The notes: generated by a model from the letters alone, not told the origin. 15,750 bases of DNA from Promethearchaeota archaeon (GCA_016839705.1 JAEOTR010000068.1:1-15750), one strand, 5' to 3'; positions 1 through 15,038 are shown, numbered from the stretch's first letter. Made by a program: numbers and translations.

Positions 1-3000
1 ACAAAAGAATCTCCTTCAACCCATATTTTCCCTTTGTAATTATTTAAGATTCTCTCGACCAAAAGAAATCCTAAAATTATATCTTTAATTTTACTATCCT
101 TTTCTCTTTCTTTCTTGAATAGCATATTTTTCCCGATATTTAAGATCTCCTTTTGATAATCGATAAATTTTACTTTTATAAAATTAGTGTTATCTTGGTG
201 GCTTCTAAAAATAATAATTTTAAGTTTAATTATGGGATTTGGATTATATCTAATCGAACTGATAAGTATATTGACGAAAACATCTATTAGAAATTTATCA
301 GCTTTTACATATAGATCCTCAGAGGGTTGTTCAACAGTTATATTAATTCTTTTACTTGAATAACTGTTTGTAATAAAATCTTTAACATCGACGATAACAT
401 TGTTTAAATTTACTGGTTCAATTAAAACATTTGTTTGATTAATCATTGTTAATTTAAGTATTATGTCTATCAAGAGTTTACTATTTATACATTGATCTTT
501 AACATTTTCTAATATTTCTCTTTTGGATTTTAAAATAATTTGATTATCAGCCTTTTCATATTCGTTTAATGATAATTGAATGTTCTTTATTATAGAATTT
601 ATATCATTCACGAATAACTCTTTATAAAAATACTCTCTATCAAATTCTTGGTGGATTGTTTCTTCACTTATGCGTAAATGCTCTTCAGCTAATTTGCGTA
701 ATAATACATTTTTAAGAATATCTGAAATAATGCTTAGCAAGTCTAAATTTTCTTCTATCCAATAATCTCTGTCCTTAATATTATCAAAACTAATCATTGC
801 TTCCAAAATCCCGTTTATTTTTACTGAAAATGTTAAAAAATTTTTAGCTCTTTGATTATCAAGAAAAAACTTTAAATTTACTGCTTCAGTAGGAAGGCTG
901 TCTACACTTTTAATATACAAATAATCAGATTTTAGTAATTTCTCAGTTAACCATGGAAAATTATTCATTTGAATATTTTCAGGTAAACTTATTTGGGGAT
1001 AGATCACCTTTCTATACCAAACATAATTTCTTTTTATGAAGTTAAAATTTTCATTAAGAATGTAGAGGTACACTCGCGTTGCGTTAAAGAATTCGCCAAT
1101 ATCTCTAAGTGAATCTATTATTGCCTGATTAAAATCTAGTATACCTACAAACCTCGATACAATTCCTGTAATAATAGTTTTTAATCTGGAAATTTTCTTT
1201 AATTCCTCTTCTATTTTTTTCTCTTCTGTTATATTCTGACAAATTATTTGATAAAACGTTTCATCACCAATTTCAACTAAAGAAGATTGCATATTTACCC
1301 AAATGAGGTTGCCATTTTTTTGAAAAAGTTGAATTTCTAACGGAGGAAAATATTTGCCTCTTTCTTCTGTTTTCAATCTTTTAAGAACTTCTACCATATA
1401 ATCTTGATGGATTAGTGAAAGATCTACAAATTTTTTTCCCATTAATTCGTCTCTTGTATATCCTAATGTTTCTTCTAAAGCAGGATTAAAATCAACTAAA
1501 GAACCTTTAGGGTCGATTAGTAGAATAGAAAAAGGTGATTCTTTGAACAGATGACGATATTTTATTTCAGAATGCTTTAGTTTAATTTCTGCTTCTATTC
1601 TCTGACTAATATTTCGAATTATATATTGAACAAAGATTTGACCCCCCATCTGAACTTCATTAACACTGATTTCAATGGGAATAAGATTCCCAGAATTATC
1701 AATAACCTCTAATCTTAAAGGAAATGGGTAATCAAGCTGATCAAATACTTCTTCATTAAAATCTATATTAATAATACCACTTAATATTTGGCTTGAATGC
1801 AAACCAATAAAATTTTCAAATGGCCGTTGAAATAAATCCTCAGCTTCTTTGTTAACATCTATTATTATTCCTGATTTTTTATCAATTATTAAAATGGCAT
1901 CTCGAGCAGCTTTAAATAAAGCCTCATAACGCAATTCGGCCATTTTAAGCGCTTGAATCGAAGGTTTATATAAAGCAATTTGATTAATTATTGTACTGTG
2001 AATAGATTCAAGAATATCTACTACTTGTTTTTTATTTGAATAATTTTTTTTTATATCGTCAAATTGTTTAAGGATGAAAGAACTAAATTGGTTAATAATA
2101 TTCTTCGGAATTTTTTCATTGTAGTAAATTATTAAAGACAAGGGTAACAAACCACCTCTAATACTCTCATTGTGAACGTAGTCACTATAAATCGCGGCAT
2201 TAGAATTTAAGTGAGGAAATGGGAGAATTACTGAGGTTGGTCTAAATTCATCTCCTCCAAAAATTAACTGTGATATTGAAAAACTTTTTATGGATATCAA
2301 TTCTGGATTCTCAAAAGCATCTTTAGGATGAATCGCTTCGATTTTAATACCTAGATTTTCATCCCATCTACAAAATATTATCCCAATTTCTCTTCTTGGA
2401 GTATATTGATCAACTCTCTCTGCAATTTTAAGTGATAGCCAATTAAACGCCTCATCAATATTTATGTTTTTAATCCCACTTGTTAAAAATGATTTCATTG
2501 GCCTCTTTCCGAGTTTCTTCACTCCCATGGCTTCTTCTAGATCTTTTATATCTAGTTCTTTTAAATCAATCTTATTAAAAAGGATAAGAAGTGGCAATTC
2601 ACTTAATTCTGGTTTTCCAGCAATTTCATGTAGTAATTCGCGTGCATATGAGAATTTTATTTTATCAGAAACATCTAATACAAAAATCAACCCATCTTGA
2701 TTTTGTAGATAAGGTTTCCATACTTCCTTAACTTTATATTTTCCAGGTATATCGTGGGTTAATAAAGATAAATTATTAACTAAAATTTTAGAAATGTCTA
2801 CATTTATAGTTGGAAATATTGTCTTTGATACTGATTTTCTTCTCGTTCTAATTATTGTCGTTTTCCCCGCCAAAGAAAGCCCAAAAATTAGTATTTTTGC
2901 CTCCTTTTGTTCAAATATGACTTCTTCTTCTGGAAAAGAGATATGAAAAGTATTGAGTAATTTTCTAATTTCTTTTAGTTTAGTAGAATCTCCTTTATAA

Positions 3001-3350
3001 ATTTTAGAGTCCATATAAAAAGCCTTGAAAGCTTCTTCGATTTTTTTGAACTCTTCAACAAATCCCTCTAAAAACTCTTGAGCTAAAACAGAATTAATTT
3101 TGGATTTGCTATCAATAACTAATGAAATTAAAAGAAGCTCTTTTTCTGTTCCTGAGTAGGCACTCGGAATATCAAAGATTAAATTAGCTGTTTTAAAAGT
3201 TCCAAACGTATGTATAAAAAAACCGTTTTCATAGAGATCTATCAATAAGGGAACCTGTTTGATGTCTTCTCTTTGAATAGTTTCAGGGATTTTTAAAAAA
3301 ATTTTTGGATGAAAATATGGGTTCCGATGACTTAAAACTAACATTCTCAA
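1..3350 (-). CDS. Multidomain signalling protein, 3'-partial: longin/uDENN-like + Arf-like small GTPase + longin/uDENN-like + 2x PAS + GAF + degenerate (pseudo) histidine kinase
   Basis: Not in the ORF track because no stop codon falls inside the window. Manual translation gives an uninterrupted frame from TTG 3350 (ATG at 3344; GAGGT ~9 nt upstream of the TTG) to position 1. GTPase motifs: G1 GLSLAGKT (2882-2859), G2 PT (2813-2808), G3 DIPG (2753-2742), Arf-like WKPY..DGLIFVLDVSD, G4 NKID (2576-2565), G5 TSG (2483-2475), terminal AFNWL. PAS-like ELRYEALFKAARDAILIID..RNISQR (~1935-1600) and EIKYRHLFKESPFSILLID..NGNLIWV..QNITEEK (~1570-1220). GAF-like ~1140-700. HisKA/HATPase-like ~630-1, ending YKGKIWVEGDSF. 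Confidence 0.9.
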   Translation of the reverse strand, partial: MRMLVLSHRNPYFHPKIFLKIPETIQREDIKQVPLLIDLYENGFFIHTFGTFKTANLIFDIPSAYSGTEKELLLISLVIDSKSKINSVLAQEFLEGFVEEFKKIEEAFKAFYMDSKIYKGDSTKLKEIRKLLNTFHISFPEEEVIFEQKEAKILIFGLSLAGKTTIIRTRRKSVSKTIFPTINVDISKILVNNLSLLTHDIPGKYKVKEVWKPYLQNQDGLIFVLDVSDKIKFSYARELLHEIAGKPELSELPLLILFNKIDLKELDIKDLEEAMGVKKLGKRPMKSFLTSGIKNINIDEAFNWLSLKIAERVDQYTPRREIGIIFCRWDENLGIKIEAIHPKDAFENPELISIKSFSISQLIFGGDEFRPTSVILPFPHLNSNAAIYSDYVHNESIRGGLLPLSLIIYYNEKIPKNIINQFSSFILKQFDDIKKNYSNKKQVVDILESIHSTIINQIALYKPSIQALKMAELRYEALFKAARDAILIIDKKSGIIIDVNKEAEDLFQRPFENFIGLHSSQILSGIINIDFNEEVFDQLDYPFPLRLEVIDNSGNLIPIEISVNEVQMGGQIFVQYIIRNISQRIEAEIKLKHSEIKYRHLFKESPFSILLIDPKGSLVDFNPALEETLGYTRDELMGKKFVDLSLIHQDYMVEVLKRLKTEERGKYFPPLEIQLFQKNGNLIWVNMQSSLVEIGDETFYQIICQNITEEKKIEEELKKISRLKTIITGIVSRFVGILDFNQAIIDSLRDIGEFFNATRVYLYILNENFNFIKRNYVWYRKVIYPQISLPENIQMNNFPWLTEKLLKSDYLYIKSVDSLPTEAVNLKFFLDNQRAKNFLTFSVKINGILEAMISFDNIKDRDYWIEENLDLLSIISDILKNVLLRKLAEEHLRISEETIHQEFDREYFYKELFVNDINSIIKNIQLSLNEYEKADNQIILKSKREILENVKDQCINSKLLIDIILKLTMINQTNVLIEPVNLNNVIVDVKDFITNSYSSKRINITVEQPSEDLYVKADKFLIDVFVNILISSIRYNPNPIIKLKIIIFRSHQDNTNFIKVKFIDYQKEILNIGKNMLFKKEREKDSKIKDIILGFLLVERILNNYKGKIWVEGDSF

Positions 3351-3864: not shown

Positions 3865-5217
3865 ATGCTAATGAATAAATCGAAAAAAAAAGGTATTCTG
3901 GCTATAATTAGCGTTTTCATGCTTATGTTTTGCATTTTCACTTTAAGTACTAAACTAATTCAAAAAAATAATTTTGACTTAAATGAAAATAGTAAAAATT
4001 TTGAAACTTCTGGATCAATAGTTGAAAATCCTATTTTTATTAATGGAAGTGCTACAGGTTTATCAGCGCATAATTGGACTTGGGCGGAGGAACAATTTTG
4101 GTGTGGCGGTTCAGGTACTTCAATTGATCCTTATTTTATTGAAAATTTATTAGTTGATGGAAATAATCAGAGTAATTGTATTGAAATTCATAATTCTGCA
4201 AAATATCTTATAATAAGAGATTGCACTGTTTTCAATTCGCGTTTAAATGAATCAGATCCGGGTGCGGGATTTTTCCTCGTAAATGTTACTAATTTGACAT
4301 TAATCGATAATGAATGTGATTATAATGCATACGGTGTGTTTATGGAACAATCTAGTTATAATAACATAACTGGAAACTCAGCAAGTTTTAATACGTGGTC
4401 AGGGTTTTATTTTTCTCTATGCGTTAACAACACGATGTCTAAAAATGTAGCAAATAATAATATAGGGGTACAATTTGAAAGTATGGGTATTAATCTAAGA
4501 CTTTGCGATTTTAACCTCGTTTTTGAAAATATCGCAAAAAATAATAAATATGGAATATGGCTTTCGGGCTCAGTTTCTATATGGGGTAGTCATAATAATA
4601 CTATCATAAATAATACAGCATCTTACAATGAGATTGGTATAGCTCTCTTTGGGGACTTTGGCAGGTGTTACAATAACACTTTATCTGGAAATGTTGTCTC
4701 TAATAATATAGACTATGGTATCCGTGTATCTAGGTCTCCTCAGAACATTTTCCGTAAAAATACTGTAAAAAATAATGAAAATGATGGAATTTATACGTAT
4801 AAAGAATCAAATAATAATACCTTCTCAGAAAATGCTTTTATTAAAAATGGGATGACGGGTTTAAATATTGGATACCAGTCATATTGGAATCTTATTTATT
4901 ATAATTGTTTTAGTGGAAATGGATTAAATGCTCAAGATGATGGAACTAGTAATGAATGGGATAATGAATTTTATGGTAATTATTGGGACAATTATACCGG
5001 TTTAGATACCGATCACAATGGAATCGGGGATGTTTCGTATAATATATCAGGCATAGCGGAAAACCAAGACCGTTTTCCATTAATGAAATGCCCATTTTCA
5101 ATATACCAAGATACTGGAGGTTTTCCTTTTGAACTCATTATTCTAATATCGGTTATTAGTGGAGGTGCTGTGATAGGTGTAGCAACCCTACTGTTAATTA
5201 GACGTAAAAGGAAATAG
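3865..5217 (+). CDS. Secreted, C-terminally membrane-anchored parallel beta-helix protein (NosD/CASH-like)
   Basis: Signal/anchor KSKKK followed by a hydrophobic stretch. NWTWA..WCGGSGT..PYFIENL cap. Many Asn-rich PbH1-type repeats (NNITGN, NNTIINN, NNTLSGN, YGI). GNYWDNYTGLDTDHNGIGD..Y..DRFPL motif typical of NosD-like archaeal surface proteins. C-terminal TM helix plus RRKRK. Confidence 0.85.
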   Translation: MLMNKSKKKGILAIISVFMLMFCIFTLSTKLIQKNNFDLNENSKNFETSGSIVENPIFINGSATGLSAHNWTWAEEQFWCGGSGTSIDPYFIENLLVDGNNQSNCIEIHNSAKYLIIRDCTVFNSRLNESDPGAGFFLVNVTNLTLIDNECDYNAYGVFMEQSSYNNITGNSASFNTWSGFYFSLCVNNTMSKNVANNNIGVQFESMGINLRLCDFNLVFENIAKNNKYGIWLSGSVSIWGSHNNTIINNTASYNEIGIALFGDFGRCYNNTLSGNVVSNNIDYGIRVSRSPQNIFRKNTVKNNENDGIYTYKESNNNTFSENAFIKNGMTGLNIGYQSYWNLIYYNCFSGNGLNAQDDGTSNEWDNEFYGNYWDNYTGLDTDHNGIGDVSYNISGIAENQDRFPLMKCPFSIYQDTGGFPFELIILISVISGGAVIGVATLLLIRRKRK

Positions 5218-6511: not shown

Positions 6512-9310
6512 TTGAAAATATGTATGTCTAAAGCGATCATCCAAAAAGCCTTTCAAGAAAAGTATACCACTAAAAATAAATTAGAGAAAAGCTGGCAGGA
6601 CTTCTTAAATAGAGACACTTATTTAACAATTGATGAAAAACGCAAATTTTTTAGTGAAATAAACCAATTGGCAAAATTTCCTCGACTTATTAAATTTAAA
6701 TTTAAAGCAAGAAGGGTGTTTAGAAAATTTAGGAAGGTTTTACACACCTTGATTGAAGAAATTAATACCTATAATGATTATTTTATTGAAAATCGTTTAA
6801 AAAATTGCCAATCCTTCTTAAATGGAAAGGATGATGGATTAAAGTATCCCTTAGATGAAGAACAAAAATTGGCTGTAATTAAGGATGATAAACATAACCT
6901 TGTAATTGCCGGGGCCGGTTCAGGGAAAACAAGTGTAATTTCTTCTAGAATGGCTTATTTGATTAGACGAAAGGATAAAGTTGATCAAGATAAAATATTA
7001 GCATTAGCATTCACTAAGGTAGCTGCTGATGAGATGAAGGAAAGGTTAAAAAAAAACTATGGTATTGAAATTGATATCTCAACGTTTCATGCTTTAGGAA
7101 GGAGCATCATAGAAGAGGAACTAGATCATAAACCTAAACTTATATTTAATGGTAATGAAAAAGAGATATACGAACTCATTGAAAAATTATTTATGGATGC
7201 CCTTAAGGAAGTTAAATATCAAAACATTCTTATAGAATATTTAGCATATCATTCAGAGCAAGAAGTTAAACCTGAATCATTTGAAAATAAAGTGGAATAT
7301 TATGAATATATGAGAAATAAAAACTATTCAACTCTTAATGATATTTCTGTGAAATCAATTTCTGAAAGGGATATTGGAAACTTTCTATTCTTGCATAATA
7401 TCAAATTCGAGTATGAACCATTGGTAGAATGGGTGGATGAGAGTGAAGAGGATAAAGAATACCATCCTGATTTTTATCTTCCTGAATATGATGTCTATAT
7501 TGAGCATTGGGGATTGAATAAGAGTAATCAAGTTCCAGAGTGGTTTACGAAAACTTCTGAAGAATATCTACAGTTAAGAAATTGGAAATTAGAACAATTT
7601 GAAACTCATAATAAAACCATTGTAGAAACATGGGATTATGAGCGTTTATCTGAGGAACTAATTCCAAATTTAAAGGAAAAGCTAAAGAAAGTAATTCCTA
7701 AATTAGAATTTATTCCATTAACTTATAGTGAGCTAGTTGAAAAAACATTTGAGTTTAAAGAGAAACGAAATGAGGTTGTCAAGCTAGTTGGAAACTTTAT
7801 AAAAATATCAAAATGTAATTTTTATACGGTGTCAGATATAACTGAGAGAATAAAAGCAAAAAAATATTCTAAAAAACAGAAATTATTCGGAGAATTGGCT
7901 CTTGAAGTGTATAGGAGATATCAAGATTACTTGAATACGGAAAATCGGATAGATTTCAATGATATGATTAACCTTGCCGTTGAATTAACAAAAAAAGAAC
8001 CAGAAAAGTATATTAGTAGATATGATCATGTTCTTGTCGATGAATTCCAAGATATTTCTTATCAGAGATTAGAATTGATCAAGTGTTTTGTTAATGATAA
8101 ATCAAATACGAAATTATTCTGTGTGGGTGATGATTGGCAAAGTATCTATCAATTTACAGGTAGCGACGTACGATTTTTTGTCAACTTTAAAGATTATTTT
8201 CCGAATCCTGAAATCACTTATCTAAGCAATAATTATCGAAGTAGTAAAACTATTGTAGGCATATCAAATAAGTTAATAGCCAATAATAAGAAACAAATTA
8301 TCAAAGAAACCCGTTCCACTCACGATATTGGAATGCAACCTATGTTTATTGATTTTACTTCAGGATTTAATTATAATCCTAAAATTCAATATGAAAATAT
8401 CTACAATCTTATCCAAATCCTATTAGATGATGGAGTTGAACCTCATGAGATTATGGTTTTATCACGGTTTAATAAATACTTAAGAGATTTGGAAATCTTT
8501 TGTGGTGCCAGAGGAGTTCCAACAGAATCAGAACATGGTGGAGTACGATTTTATAGCGCTCATAAATCAAAGGGCTCTGAAAGTCAGCATGTAATTCTAA
8601 CGGATATGACCTCTGGACTATACGGATTTCCATGCGAAATTCAAGATTCATCAGTAATGGAATTAGCGAAAAGATTTGAATCTGATGGCTTTATAGATGA
8701 AGAACGACGGCTTTTTTATGTATCTTTGACTCGAAGTAAGAAATTTCTCTATATTTACAGCATGGAACAGAGCAACTCTATGTTTCTAAATGAGATTAAT
8801 CCATATTTATTGAGATTACGATTAGATACCACAAATAGATGGGATGAAGGATTATCTGATTATATGAAGTCTTTTATTAAGGGAATTTTACCCGATATAC
8901 CAATATCCTGCCCTAACTGCGATAGCTTTTTAGTTAAAAGAACTGGAAAGAAAGGGAATTTCCTCGGATGTAGTCGCTACCCTAAATGTAATTATACTCA
9001 AGATTTAGAAAATCTATCTGAGAGATATGAAGATAAAAAAATCTTTACTATTGACTCTCTTCCAAGATTCTGTGAACAATGCGGAAAACCTTTAGCAATC
9101 CGGAAAGGCCCTTATGGAGGGTTTTTAGGATGTACAAGATATCCAAATTGTAAATTTACTTTCAATCTTAGTGATGATAAGCCAATTATTTGCCCAAGCT
9201 GTGGAAGCCCTCTTGTCGTAAGAAAAGGACAGTATGGAGCTTTTTTAGGATGTACGAACTATCCGAGATGTAAATTTTTGTTAGATAGCAAGAAATTCAG
9301 AAGAGGTTAA
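6512..9310 (+). CDS. SF1A DNA helicase (helicase IV/UvrD-like) with inserted PD-(D/E)xK-type nuclease-like domain and three C-terminal topoisomerase-type C4 zinc ribbons
   Basis: Q motif LDEEQ, Walker A AGAGSGKT (~6908-6931), Ia LAFT, STFH, Walker B VDEFQD, III VGDDWQSIYQF, IV NYRS, V HKSKGSE, VI EERRLFYVSLTRSK. Insert KSISE..IGNFL..FEYE..YHPDFYL..YIEHWG (~7350-7513). CxxC..GC..YPxC repeats start at 8909, 9071 and 9191. The true start may be ATG 6524. Confidence 0.92.
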   Translation: MKICMSKAIIQKAFQEKYTTKNKLEKSWQDFLNRDTYLTIDEKRKFFSEINQLAKFPRLIKFKFKARRVFRKFRKVLHTLIEEINTYNDYFIENRLKNCQSFLNGKDDGLKYPLDEEQKLAVIKDDKHNLVIAGAGSGKTSVISSRMAYLIRRKDKVDQDKILALAFTKVAADEMKERLKKNYGIEIDISTFHALGRSIIEEELDHKPKLIFNGNEKEIYELIEKLFMDALKEVKYQNILIEYLAYHSEQEVKPESFENKVEYYEYMRNKNYSTLNDISVKSISERDIGNFLFLHNIKFEYEPLVEWVDESEEDKEYHPDFYLPEYDVYIEHWGLNKSNQVPEWFTKTSEEYLQLRNWKLEQFETHNKTIVETWDYERLSEELIPNLKEKLKKVIPKLEFIPLTYSELVEKTFEFKEKRNEVVKLVGNFIKISKCNFYTVSDITERIKAKKYSKKQKLFGELALEVYRRYQDYLNTENRIDFNDMINLAVELTKKEPEKYISRYDHVLVDEFQDISYQRLELIKCFVNDKSNTKLFCVGDDWQSIYQFTGSDVRFFVNFKDYFPNPEITYLSNNYRSSKTIVGISNKLIANNKKQIIKETRSTHDIGMQPMFIDFTSGFNYNPKIQYENIYNLIQILLDDGVEPHEIMVLSRFNKYLRDLEIFCGARGVPTESEHGGVRFYSAHKSKGSESQHVILTDMTSGLYGFPCEIQDSSVMELAKRFESDGFIDEERRLFYVSLTRSKKFLYIYSMEQSNSMFLNEINPYLLRLRLDTTNRWDEGLSDYMKSFIKGILPDIPISCPNCDSFLVKRTGKKGNFLGCSRYPKCNYTQDLENLSERYEDKKIFTIDSLPRFCEQCGKPLAIRKGPYGGFLGCTRYPNCKFTFNLSDDKPIICPSCGSPLVVRKGQYGAFLGCTNYPRCKFLLDSKKFRRG

Positions 9311-9318
9311 AATGAATT

Positions 9319-9975
9319 ATGGCTGAAATCCCAAAGTTTTGCCCGAGATGCGGTAAACCATTAGAGATGAGAAAAGGAACTTATGGGACTTATCTAGATT
9401 GTACAGATTACCCCAAATGTAAATATACATATGATTTTTCTAGTAAAAATGTAGCTAAGACAACACAAAATGGCACAAACACACCTTCCTCGTGCCCAAA
9501 ATGCGGAAAAAAATTAGCATTATATATTGGAAAATACGGGATATTTCTTGGGTGTAATGGTTATCCCAAATGTAATTACTCACTAAACTTCGAGGATCCC
9601 TATAATATTACCTGTCCAAAATGCGGGAAAATCATGATAGAACGGACTGGAACTTATGGGATGTTCTATGGGTGTAAAGGGTATCCCAAATGTAAATTTA
9701 CCTTCGATCTAAGGGTAAAAGGAAAAACTAAGGAAAAAAAACCTGTAAAAAAGTTAGTTTTACCAGAGGGATACGGTTTTAAAGTTACGGGGGATGATAT
9801 ACTAGGTGCTCTGACTTGTGAGGGGCAAAATTTGCGTGGACTTGTAACTAAATTAGAACTAACTAATGAAGTAGATATTAATTACCTTAAACTCAAATTA
9901 AAGGAATTCGAACATAAAGGCTTTATAATCAAAAATTTTAATGATAACGAAACAATTTGGGAGAAAGTTAAATAA
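9319..9975 (+). CDS. Topoisomerase-type C4 zinc-ribbon repeat protein (3 repeats) with putative C-terminal winged-helix domain
   Basis: Three CPxCGxx..GxYG..C..YPKCxY/F repeats and a Lys-rich linker. The C-terminus ILGAL..NLRGLVTKL..YLKLKLKEFEHKGFI..NETIW is wHTH-like. It starts 8 nt after the helicase stop, with GAGGT at 9303-9307. Confidence 0.85.
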   Translation: MAEIPKFCPRCGKPLEMRKGTYGTYLDCTDYPKCKYTYDFSSKNVAKTTQNGTNTPSSCPKCGKKLALYIGKYGIFLGCNGYPKCNYSLNFEDPYNITCPKCGKIMIERTGTYGMFYGCKGYPKCKFTFDLRVKGKTKEKKPVKKLVLPEGYGFKVTGDDILGALTCEGQNLRGLVTKLELTNEVDINYLKLKLKEFEHKGFIIKNFNDNETIWEKVK

Positions 9976-10014: not shown

Positions 10015-10719
10015 GTGGTATATAGGTTATATATTATGAAATCAAATGATAATGATTTAAACATTCCAAAAACATGCCCTAAATGTGGTAGTGAATTAGA
10101 AGAACGTGAAGGGAAATATGGAAAATTCTTGGGATGCACTAATTTTCCAGAATGTCGTTATACGTTTGATTTGAGTGGTGATAATATCAGTCTTAAATGC
10201 CCTGATTGCGGTAAAAGTTTACGATTCCGAGATAGTCAATATGGAAGGTTTTTAAGCTGCAGTGGTTTTCCCGATTGTAAATTTGCGTTTAATCCAGAAT
10301 TTAAAGATCATCCTGATATCTTTTGCCCAAAATGTAATAAGACTTTAGAATTAGAGACCATTGAAGATAAAAAATATCTAACTTGTAAAGGAAAGCCCCA
10401 ATGTGATTTCAAGCTTGAATGGGTTGATTCCAAGCAGAAAATTACCAAAAGAGGTTATTATCCTAAATGTCCTGATTGCAGTAGTGAATTAGCGAAGCGT
10501 AGTGGTAAATTTGGGTCATTCCTAGGATGTGTTAGCTATCCAAATTGCAGATTTACGTTCGATCCCGAAAGAGAGAATCAAAGAGTTTTAAAGTGTCCTG
10601 AATGTGGAAAAGAGTTAGATATAAGGCTAGGAAAATATGGTAAATTTGTAGGATGTTCAGGATATCCTGAATGCAGATATATCTTTGATCTTAGGAGTTC
10701 GGAACCAAAACTAGATTGA
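10015..10719 (+). CDS. Topoisomerase-type C4 zinc-ribbon repeat protein (5 repeats; YrdD-like architecture)
   Basis: Five CPxC..C..[FY/K]PxC repeats, the third divergent (CPKCNKTLELETIEDKKYLTCKGKPQC). No catalytic domain. The start may be ATG 10036. Confidence 0.88.
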   Translation: MVYRLYIMKSNDNDLNIPKTCPKCGSELEEREGKYGKFLGCTNFPECRYTFDLSGDNISLKCPDCGKSLRFRDSQYGRFLSCSGFPDCKFAFNPEFKDHPDIFCPKCNKTLELETIEDKKYLTCKGKPQCDFKLEWVDSKQKITKRGYYPKCPDCSSELAKRSGKFGSFLGCVSYPNCRFTFDPERENQRVLKCPECGKELDIRLGKYGKFVGCSGYPECRYIFDLRSSEPKLD

Positions 10720-10807: not shown

Positions 10808-11104
10808 ATGAAAGAAATGATAACTACTCAAATAAGTATTAAAAGAAAACTGCTGTTAAAACAATATTTGAACGGTCAACTTGCGGTATATGTTAATGAT
10901 ATTAATAGTGAGCCAATAGCTGAACTTTCTATCATGCATAATTCTATAGATCTTGCTCCAAATGAATTTATTTTGAAAGATTATTCTGAGAATGAATATT
11001 TGGTGCAACAATGCTATGAATCAAACTTATTTACACCAACAGATAGATTTGTTTTAATCGGCTCACATCTCTGTCCTATATGTCAGATTAAGTCGGAAGT
11101 TTGA
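10808..11104 (+). CDS. Small hypothetical protein, DUF4313-like
   Basis: Pattern YxNGxxAV..EPIAxLS..L..NEFILKDYSENE..TDRFV.IG..CPIC resembles my recollection of DUF4313-type mobile-element proteins. The 3' end overlaps the convergent gene by 22 nt. Confidence 0.6.
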   Translation: MKEMITTQISIKRKLLLKQYLNGQLAVYVNDINSEPIAELSIMHNSIDLAPNEFILKDYSENEYLVQQCYESNLFTPTDRFVLIGSHLCPICQIKSEV

Positions 11105-12885
11105 AACTGCTGTAACGTTTTCACGAAATCTGTTGACTCGTTTGCACTTAAAATAAGCTTCTTCTTAGTACGAGTCATACCTACATAGAGTAACTGACGA
11201 TCTTGATCAGATTTATAGGTGTTGACTTCGGGGATTATGATGGTGTCCGCTTCTAATCCTTTTGTTCCGTGAAGGGTACCGATCAATAATCCTGGTGTTT
11301 TATAATCATAATCCATCAAATCTTTCCAATTTATATGTAATTGTCTTAAATAATCAAAAAAGGGATGTTCATATTTCCTTTTCGCCATGTTATATTTGAA
11401 TAGTACTAAGATTTCTTGAGGAGACTTCAAAAGGTTATTAATTTTATCAGCAAGCTTTCTGTACTCCTCATCTCGAGTTCTTGATAGAATAAACTCAAAT
11501 AATCCGTGTGTTCCTATGAATTCTTCTGTTGCTAGAAATTCATCAAATTTTCCAATTAATTCTTTTATAGCTTGAGGTAACGTTTCTTGAGCTATATATC
11601 CTATTTCAATGGGAGTACGATATGATTTCTGGAATCTTCTCACCCTACCCCTCGCTTGGATTCCAACATTCGACCAAAAAAATCTTTTTCGATCATATAT
11701 TCCTTGAAGACCGTCACAAGTAATCAATAAGGAATTAGATTTTGAATTTAAGACTTGCATGATGGATTTAAACCAACCTTCCTCAAAATCTTGGGCCTCA
11801 TCAATAAGGATGGCATCATAAGTTATCTTATCATCACCGAGAGCCGTTAACATTTCTAATAATAATCCGGGTACTTTTTTATTGAAAAATTCATCGAACC
11901 CATTTTCCCGTCTGGCTTTATTTTCTGCTTCCAGATACAATCTTGAATACTCATTATCGGGACTCAGAATATAACTTCTGGCCCATGCATGAAAATTATT
12001 AATTGTTACATCAGCATCGTAATCTTGCGGGTTCAATAAGTGGAAAAGTAACATTTTCAATCTTTTATTATAACATAATACGAGAATTCTCCAATTTGGA
12101 TGCCGGAGAGCTAATATTCTTGCACGGGCAATTAAAAGGACCGTTTTTCCACTTCCAGCAACCCCAAATATCAGTCTATGGCCCTCCCCCATTACCCTTG
12201 CTAAGCTTTCTTGCTCTTCGTCTAAGAGTTTAATCCTATCCTCGATTGAGAAATATTCAAGTAAGTCAGTCTGTTTTAAATCAGGTAATCGACAGGTCGG
12301 GATAATATTTGCTCTTAGCACCTTAAACTGTTCTTCAGAGAGATAAGCATTTACTGGTATAATGCCAATCATAAATTCCTCAAAATTGTCATTTCTCTTC
12401 AACGTTTCTTTAAAGCTTACGTGAATTTTACTCGGTAAAAGTGCTCGGATCCCTCCAGCGGCATAACTACTCTCTGAAATTTGGCTAAATGCTACTAATC
12501 GGGTTATAGGAATATACACATCCTCAGGAAAGTGACAATATCCTATTCGATCTTTAATAGCACGCCAATATTGATACAGTTGATCAAATGGATTATCTAA
12601 TAATATTGGCTTCTCATCTTTTAATCTTTCCCATTTACCCGTTTTTGGTGTAGTCTTTAAATACCTTTCGGAGTAATCCTTGACTTCTACGATTAGAATC
12701 CCGTGTTGTGGTGAGAGAATAACAAAATCTGGATGTAAATCTCCAATATACGGCTCGAAATAAGCAATTATATGATTTTGCTTATCAAAAAAGTTGACAA
12801 TTCGGTTATAGACCATCCGCTCCCCATCGGTCGTCGTTGAAGGTGGTTTGCTCAGGAAATTTACCATATATTCAAGTAAAAGCAA
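11083..12885 (-). CDS. NERD nuclease domain fused to SF1 (UvrD-like) helicase/ATPase
   Basis: N-terminal GE..EP..HPDFVILSPQHGILIVEVKD..NPFDQ (NERD, PD-(D/E)xK). Walker A GVAGSGKT, LCYN, Walker B IDEAQD, DGLQGIY, SYRT, TLHGTKGLEAD, LLYVGMTRTK. Likely start ATG 12867. Confidence 0.92.
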   Translation of the reverse strand: MLLLEYMVNFLSKPPSTTTDGERMVYNRIVNFFDKQNHIIAYFEPYIGDLHPDFVILSPQHGILIVEVKDYSERYLKTTPKTGKWERLKDEKPILLDNPFDQLYQYWRAIKDRIGYCHFPEDVYIPITRLVAFSQISESSYAAGGIRALLPSKIHVSFKETLKRNDNFEEFMIGIIPVNAYLSEEQFKVLRANIIPTCRLPDLKQTDLLEYFSIEDRIKLLDEEQESLARVMGEGHRLIFGVAGSGKTVLLIARARILALRHPNWRILVLCYNKRLKMLLFHLLNPQDYDADVTINNFHAWARSYILSPDNEYSRLYLEAENKARRENGFDEFFNKKVPGLLLEMLTALGDDKITYDAILIDEAQDFEEGWFKSIMQVLNSKSNSLLITCDGLQGIYDRKRFFWSNVGIQARGRVRRFQKSYRTPIEIGYIAQETLPQAIKELIGKFDEFLATEEFIGTHGLFEFILSRTRDEEYRKLADKINNLLKSPQEILVLFKYNMAKRKYEHPFFDYLRQLHINWKDLMDYDYKTPGLLIGTLHGTKGLEADTIIIPEVNTYKSDQDRQLLYVGMTRTKKKLILSANESTDFVKTLQQFQTSDLI

Positions 12886-14387: not shown

Positions 14388-15038
14388 TTGTTTAAAAAAT
14401 TTATGGATAATGTTTCTAATGCTTTAGGATTGACTAGTAATAAGATTAGTGAAATAGTAAAAGAGGGCAATCATTATATAAGTGCTGAGGAAAACGTGAC
14501 AAAAGATATTAACAAAACCGTAACAGCCTTAAAAGCTTATGCAGATACAGAAACGCCCTCATTAGGTGAAGCGATAGGATCTCTAGCTAATACGTTTGAA
14601 ATCATTGAAACTGAGCGTAATGAAAAAATAAATAAGTTGCGAGAGCAATACATTGCCCCATTGAATGATTTGATTATAAATCTAAAGACTTTACAAACTG
14701 AACAAACTGAGTCAGCTAAAGCAGCTAAAGAAGTTGAAAAAGCTGAAAAATCGCTTAAAAAATCCCAAAGCAAGCCAAAGGAAAAACTTAAACCCGGAGA
14801 AGTTGAAAATGCAGAAAAAGCATTAAAAGCAGCTCAACAAAAAGCGGAAAAAGAAGAAGCTGATGTGAGGACTGCTACAGAAAATTTTAATAAGGTGAAG
14901 TTGGAAACAATGCAGAAGGTCCTCCAAAACATGGTAGATATCGAAAAAACATATCATGAAAAGATATTAACGGCGATCTCAGGAGTTCAACAAAAAGCTG
15001 AAGCCATTAAAATCGAGGAAGAATCAAAAGTAACATAA
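14388..15038 (+). CDS. BAR-domain-like all-helical protein resembling FAM92/CIBAR, with N-terminal amphipathic helix
   Basis: TTG start with GAGGT at 14376-14380. 216 aa in three long helices. AYADTETPSL, R..KL..YIAPL kink, Lys-rich tip loop, ENF.K.KL..IE..YH.K.L. Confidence 0.75.
   Translation: MFKKFMDNVSNALGLTSNKISEIVKEGNHYISAEENVTKDINKTVTALKAYADTETPSLGEAIGSLANTFEIIETERNEKINKLREQYIAPLNDLIINLKTLQTEQTESAKAAKEVEKAEKSLKKSQSKPKEKLKPGEVENAEKALKAAQQKAEKEEADVRTATENFNKVKLETMQKVLQNMVDIEKTYHEKILTAISGVQQKAEAIKIEEESKVT

Follow-up and report, generated by a model that had tools for sequence, protein, structure and literature searches.

A longin-Arf-longin GTPase head fused to a PAS-PAS-GAF sensor and a degenerate histidine kinase in an Asgard archaeal protein

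A stretch of 15,750 nucleotides (hereinafter referred to as the window), comprising bases 1-15750 of contig C60 (JAEOTR010000068.1) of a Promethearchaeota archaeon genome (3.36 Mb, 97 contigs, 93% complete), was analyzed with a focus on the gene at its first end. When open-ended frames were allowed in the open reading frame (ORF) listing, an uninterrupted, 3'-open minus-strand frame of 1116 codons was identified at 3..3350, in agreement with a reading made earlier from the sequence alone (the sequence-only reading), which had described a single frame of more than 1,100 amino acids (aa) absent from the ORF track. The gene was missing from the track of closed ORFs because the frame runs off the contig end. 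The G+C content of the region is about 25-29%, and since low G+C makes chance stops frequent, a frame of this length is far beyond chance and not accidental. The encoded chain consists, in order, of a longin domain, an Arf-like G domain, a second longin-like domain, a helical linker, two PAS domains, a GAF domain, a DHp-like hairpin, and a CA (HATPase_c-like) domain. The protein is genuine and under selection, functions as a cytosolic signalling protein, and belongs to one family of Lokiarchaeia type; the source names of its homologues place the organism among the Asgard archaea (Promethearchaeota/Lokiarchaeia). The features of the gene were as follows (b, strand; a, helix).

3..3350, minus strand: whole gene; 1116 of about 1123 codons present, stop beyond the contig end
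2913..3350, minus strand: N-terminal longin, residues 1-146, b-b-a-b-b-b-a-a (AlphaFold, Foldseek, VIA-align)
3306-3311, minus strand: H14-P15 at the position of the family GP motif (motif alignment)
3150-3152, minus strand: G67, within G67-T68 where the family has R67-G68 (motif alignment)
2412..2912, minus strand: Arf-like G domain, residues 147-313 (Pfam Arf, Foldseek, VIA-align)
2859-2882, minus strand: G1 GLSLAGKT (motif)
2808-2810, minus strand: G2 Thr181 (motif)
2742-2753, minus strand: G3 DIPG (motif)
2739-2741, minus strand: Lys204, in place of the catalytic switch-II Gln (residue following G3)
2565-2576, minus strand: G4 NKID (motif)
2031..2405, minus strand: second longin-like domain, residues 316-440, b-b-a-b-b-b-a (DSSP of the model of residues 1-470, hhalign, LokiRagO alignment)
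2361-2366, minus strand: W329-D330 of W-D-x-x-x-G334, spaced as in WDxxxGP of C9orf72
2157-2159, minus strand: R398 of R398-G399-G400, kept in the window copy and nearly invariant in the family
1944..2030, minus strand: helical linker, residues 441-469, running into PAS domain 1 (AlphaFold helix 440-469)
1581..1943, minus strand: PAS domain 1, residues ~470-590 (Pfam/NCBIfam)
1206..1568, minus strand: PAS domain 2, residues ~595-715 (PAS_9 E 1.6e-24, TIGR00229 E 4e-35)
696..1193, minus strand: GAF domain, residues ~720-885 (Pfam matches of relatives and PDB profile matches)
426..683, minus strand: DHp-like helical hairpin, residues 890-975 (profile and motif alignment)
651-653, minus strand: His900, conserved, upstream of the H-box (motif alignment)
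606-608, minus strand: N915 in the H-box LFVN915DINS(I), where basal relatives read LFTHDMNN
3..425, minus strand: degenerate CA domain (HATPase_c-like), residues 976-1116 (profile versus HK853)
270-272, minus strand: N-box Asn1027, kept, in VNILISSIRYN (motif alignment)
144-161, minus strand: G1 box DYQKEI (versus DNGIGI), Asp1064 kept (motif alignment)
57-77, minus strand: G2 box ILGFLLV (versus GIGLSLV) (motif alignment)

Translation may begin at a TTG at 3350 or at an ATG at 3344; the TTG start fits, as most orthologues open with MR(I/M)L(V/I)LSH. At the other end, orthologues of 1121-1126 aa finish with GDSFVILLPEA and the window copy stops at GDSF, so that about seven C-terminal residues are absent from it. 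No transmembrane segment was detected in the whole protein (highest 19-residue Kyte-Doolittle mean, 1.49).

Homologues of residues 1-470 formed about 120 clusters at 90% identity, most of them 1100-1126 aa long, and came from Asgard metagenome-assembled genomes of several repositories on contigs of up to 1.8 Mb. Of 400 genomes from the phylum, about 60 had a stop-free, end-to-end match to a query running over the G domain, the second longin-like domain, and PAS domain 1; these matches fell nearly all within the window's own family (seven genera), with one distant match in a neighbouring family. The union of GTPase, longin-type domains, and sensor/kinase chassis in one polypeptide, claimed in the sequence-only reading together with a proposal to look for the same domain order in other Asgard genomes, is thus a fusion kept in dozens of genomes. 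Ratios of nonsynonymous to synonymous substitution (dN/dS; Nei-Gojobori, against eleven orthologues) lay at 0.06-0.14 in the G domain and at 0.07-0.38 in each of the remaining domains, DHp and CA among them; every domain is under purifying selection.

The G domain was assigned to the Arf type by Pfam (residues 147-307, E 1.2e-35, 122.9 bits against a cutoff of 22.3), with far lower scores for the rival GTPase models Ras (36.8 bits), Roc (24.3 bits), and MMR_HSR1, and no Pfam match to the Gtr1_RagA profile on the window protein. Structure comparison gave the same picture: the model of residues 1-470 retrieved Arl8b (Foldseek E 8e-13), Arf1, Arl1, Sar1, and GerdArfR1 over the G domain, and VIA-align listed Arf6 (Z 23.2), HodArfR1 (Z 20.4), and the Roc domain of LRRK2 (Z 16.5). 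The N-terminal amphipathic membrane helix typical of Arf is replaced by the 146-residue longin that precedes the G domain. All five nucleotide-binding motifs are present, G5 being TSG, and nine positions (G157, G162, K163, P180, T181, D200, G203, N259, and K260) were invariant in 90 sequences. The small GTPase is therefore complete from G1 to G5 as had been claimed, except that its catalytic Gln is replaced by Lys204. Over the same 90 sequences, column 204 held Q in 50, K in 33 (including the window copy), Y in 4, and H in 3.

The N-terminal longin, folded alone (residues 1-146), gave an AlphaFold model with a mean pLDDT of 92.7. The best Foldseek match was NPRL2 of GATOR1 (9v0j_A, E 2.6e-5), together with FNIP2/FLCN, yeast Npr2, and Lst4. 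VIA-align placed a Lokiarchaeal roadblock-longin (8yqg_B, Z 12.9) and the folliculin complex (6nzd_H, Z 12.7) at the top, and further matches included Npr2 (8adl_S, Z 11.5), Lst4 (4zy8), and C9orf72-SMCR8 (7o2w, 6lt0); all 50 of the 50 best chains were longin domains. DENND1 matched far lower and through its longin part only (Z 9.6). No Pfam match to DENN was obtained, and the cDENN and dDENN lobes are absent, the G domain following directly after the longin. Hence the flanks, previously taken as longin/uDENN-like, are of longin type and not DENN modules, and by its predicted fold the N-terminal longin belongs to the structural class of the longins of eukaryotic GTPase-activating proteins (GAPs). 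A GP motif before strand 2 and an arginine finger are the marks of the GAP longins FLCN, NPRL2, and SMCR8, C9orf72 is marked by W33-D34 with G38-P39, and both marks have been found in Asgard longins, whose partner GTPases were posed as a question (PMC12290439). In the complex of ARF1 with SMCR8-C9orf72, the GTPase rests on the two longins and Arg147 serves as the finger; mutation of W33/D34 in C9orf72 almost abolished GAP activity (PMC8213707).

Corresponding marks were found in the longin family to which the window protein belongs. In basal relatives, the loop that precedes strand 2 of the N-terminal longin reads YGP and the strand 4-5 loop reads Y(S/A/G)RG; the window copy has FHP and YSGT, respectively. 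A profile of this domain retrieved 498 clusters at 50% identity; GP was present in 102 of 143 representatives, and among 122 diverse members scanned, Arg67-Gly68 was at least 90% conserved and Asn56 invariant. Within the same chains, these 122 members carried an Arf-type GTPase in 39 cases, PAS in 40, and HATPase_c in 12. A 'split' cousin of 553 aa is encoded on another contig (C92) of the same genome (L004:1492-3153, plus strand), with a longin 35% identical to residues 3-136 followed by PAS-GAF-PAS; it has neither a GTPase nor a kinase, and most genomes of the genus encode an orthologue about 554 aa long. Genes adjoining this cousin (L007:1207-2265 and L007:2303-3208, both minus strand) encode a 352-aa protein with an N-terminal extension and an Arf-like GTPase, and a 301-aa Gtr1/RagA-like GTPase.

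For the second flank, AlphaFold2 was run on residues 1-470 with 89 homologues (pLDDT 78, pTM 0.44, switch I disordered). The model had strand-strand-helix-strand-strand-strand-helix-helix over residues 1-140, the G domain over 145-313, and the same strand-helix order again over 322-435. A fold search with it says little about the flanks because GTPase chains fill both match lists, but LokiRagO (8yl2_A) aligned over model residues 150..440 (VIA-align Z 17.3, 243 residues, root-mean-square deviation 11.5). In addition, hhalign aligned the second domain with the profile of the N-terminal longin over 98-104 columns (E 1.5e-4 and 1.1e-4; probability 52-57%) and paired the GP of the N-terminal longin with G334 and R67 with R398. 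G334 is not followed by Pro in the window copy, and some relatives have G-P. From the strand-helix order, the hhalign result, and the LokiRagO alignment, the second flank is assigned as longin-like. Residues 314-440 matched, in the ESM Atlas, Asgard hypothetical proteins at 0.84 only, with one cluster carrying 19% NPR2 Pfam annotation, which serves as a lead only. In PDB sequences and Pfam, neither longin's HMMER profile matched NPRL2, FLCN, SMCR8, or C9orf72 at E up to 10; one longin-family member matched Pfam Folliculin at E 0.1 only, and other profile hits were chance-like. As sequence profiles find no GAP longin, the link to these proteins is drawn from predicted structure and short motifs.

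Both PAS domains were recognized by NCBIfam and Pfam (spans ~474-580 and 598-711), with 86.6 bits for PAS_9 and 120.6 bits for TIGR00229. The GAF domain of the window copy fell below the Pfam threshold (E 0.074, 14 bits), and 12 of 13 relatives matched (best 2.5e-10); its profile against PDB sequences found 6oap (2e-5) and 6bhn (1.4e-4, over positions 10-171). PAS domain 1 is not LOV-like, as it has no Cys, and the GAF domain has neither Cys nor His; no known motif for a bilin-, LOV-, or heme-type cofactor site was recognized.

The C-terminal part has the fold of a histidine kinase. A family profile of residues 885-1116 matched Thermotoga HK853 (3dge_A) with E 1e-13 over 195 positions, and NCBIfam histidine-kinase models matched weakly over residues 940-1113, while Pfam HisKA and HATPase_c both failed to reach E 1 on the window copy. 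The spacing from the acceptor position to '(I)I.DQ' in helix 2 equals that from His260 of HK853. Relatives of 830-835 aa are canonical, with the H-box LFTHDMNN(I/S)L, G1 DNGIGI, G2 G(I/V)GLSL, and a Pfam call of HATPase_c; HK853 likewise has DNGIGI and GIGLSLV at the two boxes. Over the 90 sequences, the acceptor column held N in 50, H in 22, Q in 9, and other residues in 9. Judged from these motifs, the kinase of the window copy is catalytically degenerate, with the acceptor His and the glycines of G1 and G2 gone; the features of a working kinase are confined to the shorter basal relatives. The PAS-PAS-GAF-histidine-kinase chassis described in the sequence-only reading was accordingly recovered in its fold but with a degenerate kinase. 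The further proposal of a bridge from two-component sensing to GTPase switching fails here in its ordinary sense, since canonical phosphotransfer would not be expected with Asn915, DYQKEI, and ILGFLLV at these sites.

A tree of residues 25-440, rooted on forms of 630-641 aa that lack PAS and kinase, gave an order to these losses. Forms of 499-652 aa (P0110, P0113; L037, L038), used as outgroup, carry the longin-Arf-longin head with an unassigned C-terminal region of about 170 aa replacing PAS and kinase. Forms with GP, Arg67, Gln204, Arg398, the acceptor His, and DNGIGI stood at the base. Losses then followed stepwise, GP becoming RP or PP, then His becoming Asn, and last, in the terminal clade of the window copy, Gln204 becoming Lys and Arg67 becoming Lys, Asn, or Gly. 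Arg67 was kept in 50 of 50 sequences with Gln204 and lost in 32 of 40 without it, and its loss occurred only alongside that of Gln204, in two separate clades (a Tyr204 clade and a Lys204 clade). The co-loss was counted as two independent events, and since the sequences share ancestry, the Fisher value of this table was not read as a probability. A joint action of Arg67 and Gln204 in one hydrolytic step would be expected to leave such a pattern. The family offers a natural series from fully equipped members (GP, Arg, Gln, His, G1, G2) to the stripped copy, pointing to an Arg67-Gln204 partnership.

Somewhat in preference to the alternatives taken together, we read the window protein as a switch or scaffold that binds GTP and is coupled to sensors, and that derives from a sensor kinase linked to a GTPase and equipped with a built-in longin-pair GAP. 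In the ancestor, as in relatives of 830-970 aa, the two longins would have formed a putative in-cis pair cupping the G domain, as C9orf72-SMCR8 does on ARF1, with Arg67 as a putative arginine finger working with Gln204, and the helical linker would have coupled this longin-GTPase module to a functional sensor histidine kinase. The idea of a GAP in cis comes from the conservation of R67-G68, the presence of an Arf GTPase in the same chain in the 39 members mentioned above, the co-loss of Arg67 and Gln204, and the published GP, Arg, and WD marks. Hydrolysis and phosphotransfer would both have been given up in the lineage of the window copy, which has kept G1-G5, the WD...G and RGG of the second longin, and the sensor domains. 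The present protein most likely binds GTP, with hydrolysis that would be slow or would depend on Arg398, the arginine still in place, and is a probable dimer through the dead DHp. Ligand binding to PAS or GAF would alter the partners of the GTP-bound longin-Arf-longin head, so that the signal would pass by conformation and not by phosphotransfer.

Several points weigh against this proposal. GTP binding, hydrolysis, and the loss of autophosphorylation are read from motifs alone, and the pairing of the longins and the reach of Arg67 or Arg398 to the nucleotide are argued by analogy. The profile searches that returned no NPRL2, FLCN, or C9orf72 count here, as do the low pTM and disordered switch I of the 1-470 model; the second longin is assigned from that model, hhalign, and the LokiRagO alignment. 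The co-loss of Gln204 and Arg67 amounts to only two evolutionary events and is statistically weak, and the root of the tree was chosen by architecture, with the kinase-less forms as outgroup. Further, Lys204 itself may take part in catalysis, and the CA domain may still bind nucleotide because Asn1027 and Asp1064 are kept.

The longin pair could instead be an exchange factor or a passive platform, as in DENN, Mon1-Ccz1, TRAPP, Ragulator, or SRX-SRbeta, with the conserved arginines having a structural role. Exchange factors or platforms make up most longin/roadblock partners of small GTPases, the G3 motif DxPG resembles that of SRbeta, and Mon1-Ccz1, DENND1, TRAPP, and SRX were among the structural matches of the N-terminal longin, at Z 7-10. 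The best matches, however, were GAP-class longins, and Arg67 was lost only together with the catalytic Gln; moreover, the family carries the GP motif, which is reported to be absent from non-GAP longins (PMC12290439). We regard such a role as unlikely, though it is to be taken seriously.

Another reading makes the dead kinase a decoy whose DHp heterodimerizes with an active paralogue of 830-970 aa, or titrates its partner, under modulation by the GTPase head. The atypical kinase RetS acts on GacS in such a manner, and the DHp-CA profile also matched RetS in the PDB (5e-5). Seven genomes (G204, G200, G220, G214, G151, G170, and G275) hold both a form of about 1120 aa and a 945-970-aa form 45-52% identical to it. 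The window's own genome, at 93% completeness, shows no second full-length paralogue, the long form is alone in most genomes of the genus, and the acceptor His is also lost (to Q or N) in many of the 945-970-aa forms, which together make a decoy improbable.

It is likewise improbable, and in our estimate a slim chance, that the protein is an active kinase of non-canonical type, in which His900 would be the acceptor, ATP would be held via Asn1027 and Asp1064, and the state of the GTPase would be coupled to phosphotransfer. His900 (in FHxExDREYFY) lies on the same predicted helix, 15 residues before the lost H-box His; it is nearly invariant in forms of 950-1126 aa and absent exactly in the 830-aa forms, which keep the canonical H-box. 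The retention of the N-box Asn and the G1 Asp, and the purifying selection on DHp and CA, would also fit an active enzyme. Against it, the ATP-lid glycines are replaced in both G1 and G2, and the window copy falls short of the Pfam kinase models as described above. Intermediate relatives hold the canonical His as well as His900, so that His900 has a different role in them. In addition, gene neighbours were not conserved across 14 orthologous loci, and the Pfam-annotated genes beside two relatives, these being the two loci with Pfam calls, included no response-regulator family. Finally, a GTPase gene and a sensor-kinase gene joined by chimeric assembly, or a decaying pseudogene, might be suspected from the position at a contig end with no visible stop codon, but this has a negligible chance and was rejected on comparative grounds, as the junction recurs free of stops in the ~60 genomes and on more than 100 independent contigs, some as long as 1.8 Mb, and dN/dS is well below 1 in every domain.

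Other genes were identified in the window and around the orthologues. The divergent upstream neighbour (3865-5217, plus strand) encodes a 450-aa NosD/right-handed beta-helix protein; a relative of it was present at just one further locus of the 14. At one orthologous locus, a divergent Robl_LC7 (roadblock) gene of 129 aa (L045:5166-5555, minus strand) begins 446 bases upstream of the orthologue, and the other 13 loci showed no such gene. Within the window, a UvrD-type helicase with three topoisomerase-I-type C4 zinc ribbons (6512-9310, plus strand) is followed by two small proteins (9319-9975 and 10015-10719, both plus strand) consisting almost wholly of the same zinc ribbons, in 3 and 4 copies, respectively. 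Convergent with these genes is one (11083-12885, minus strand) whose product joins a NERD nuclease domain to the C-terminal region of a UvrD-like helicase. Further, a 216-aa ORF (14388-15038, plus strand), 11 kb away from the Arf-like gene, encodes a eukaryote-type BAR-like protein. Its Pfam matches were FAM92 (E 4.6e-8), which passes the cutoff, and BAR_3 (3.9e-6), and a phmmer search of PDB sequences found the BAR domain of CIBAR1/FAM92A (E 1e-8) and arfaptin-2 at only E 0.1.

Parts of the architecture are in print. As far as the accessible portions of these papers go, many fusions of NPRL2-like longins with two-component domains were reported by Liu et al. (10.1101/2020.10.19.343400), fusions that place Asgard Rag/Arf-like GTPases between a longin domain and a roadblock domain by Tran et al. 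(PMC10933270), and longin domains as the N-termini of Asgard Arf proteins by Zhu et al. (PMC11914678). The complete longin-Arf-longin-PAS-PAS-GAF-kinase chain, the degeneration of kinase and GTPase, and the co-loss of Arg and Gln are not described in the accessible text of these three. A search that covered readable text found no explicit description of the exact architecture, including in the Vargova preprint with its supplements and in a structural-modelling paper in Nat Microbiol 2026. Both halves of the pattern had thus appeared earlier, in Liu et al. and Tran et al.

If the window gene is annotated as 'PAS domain S-box protein' or as 'histidine kinase', its GTPase head is overlooked and too much is claimed for its kinase. 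The occurrence of a longin and an Arf-like GTPase in one chain answers, by gene fusion, the question of which GTPases partner the GP-motif longins (PMC12290439), and the head of about 470 residues is a compact system for asking whether longin-based GAP chemistry predates eukaryotes. In this family, eukaryote-type GTPase regulation appears wired into prokaryotic PAS/GAF/kinase signalling, which fits a view of Asgard growth control via two-component-type parts. More tentatively, and as a possibility that we hold with some doubt, the fusions may serve as Rosetta-stone evidence that GP/Arg-type Asgard longins are GAPs of Arf-related GTPases; a single-chain, ligand-sensing longin-pair/GTPase module would then have been present in archaea first and later have turned into the nutrient-sensing machinery of eukaryotes, in which GATOR1, folliculin, and C9orf72-SMCR8 act on Rag and Arf, and the window lineage would be a natural 'double-dead' derivative that gave up hydrolysis and phosphotransfer, with GTP binding and sensing kept. 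The main value of the family lies in a single-chain model of archaeal longin-GTPase regulation, for which the basal, fully equipped relatives suit experiments better than the window copy.

Among known systems, the ARF GAP C9orf72-SMCR8(-WDR41) shares with the window family two longins together with an Arf-type GTPase (PMC8213707). The GP before strand 2 and the Arg of the family's N-terminal longin resemble G68-P69 and R147 of SMCR8, and W-D-x-x-x-G of the second longin has the spacing of W33-D34/G38-P39 in C9orf72. In contrast, the window family is a single chain with neither DENN lobes nor WDR41, and the window copy has lost the catalytic Gln of the GTPase as well as Arg67 and the glycine of the GP motif; homology is supported by predicted fold and short motifs, and not by sequence profiles. 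The Rag GAPs NPRL2 of GATOR1 and FLCN-FNIP2 provided the best structural matches of the N-terminal longin and likewise link a GTPase to nutrient or ligand sensing. They differ in that the presumed substrate domain of the window protein is Arf-like by Pfam and not Gtr1/RagA, in that the NPRL2 C-terminal and DENN domains are absent, and in that sensing would go via PAS/GAF; apart from the one family member at E 0.1, no match to Pfam NPR2 or Folliculin was obtained.

The comparison with Roco proteins made in the sequence-only reading holds as a concept, in that a small GTPase lies within a large multidomain signalling protein with a kinase-type domain and the Roc domain of LRRK2 is among the structural matches of the G domain. 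It does not extend to the domains themselves: the Pfam Roc score is below its 27-bit cutoff, no COR was found by Pfam, a longin-like domain follows the G domain, and the kinase fold is GHKL/DHp and not that of a eukaryotic-type protein kinase. In actinobacterial conservons, too, a protein of histidine-kinase type works as one signalling unit with a member of the roadblock/longin superfamily and a small Ras-like GTPase (PMC12236503, PMC4316618). In conservons these are four separate operon-encoded proteins (the kinase CvnA, the roadblock CvnB, CvnC, and the GTPase CvnD), in which the GTPase is of MglA type, the roadblock is of MglB type, and the kinase is active and membrane-bound, whereas the window protein is a single soluble chain with an Arf-type GTPase, longins, and an apparently dead kinase.

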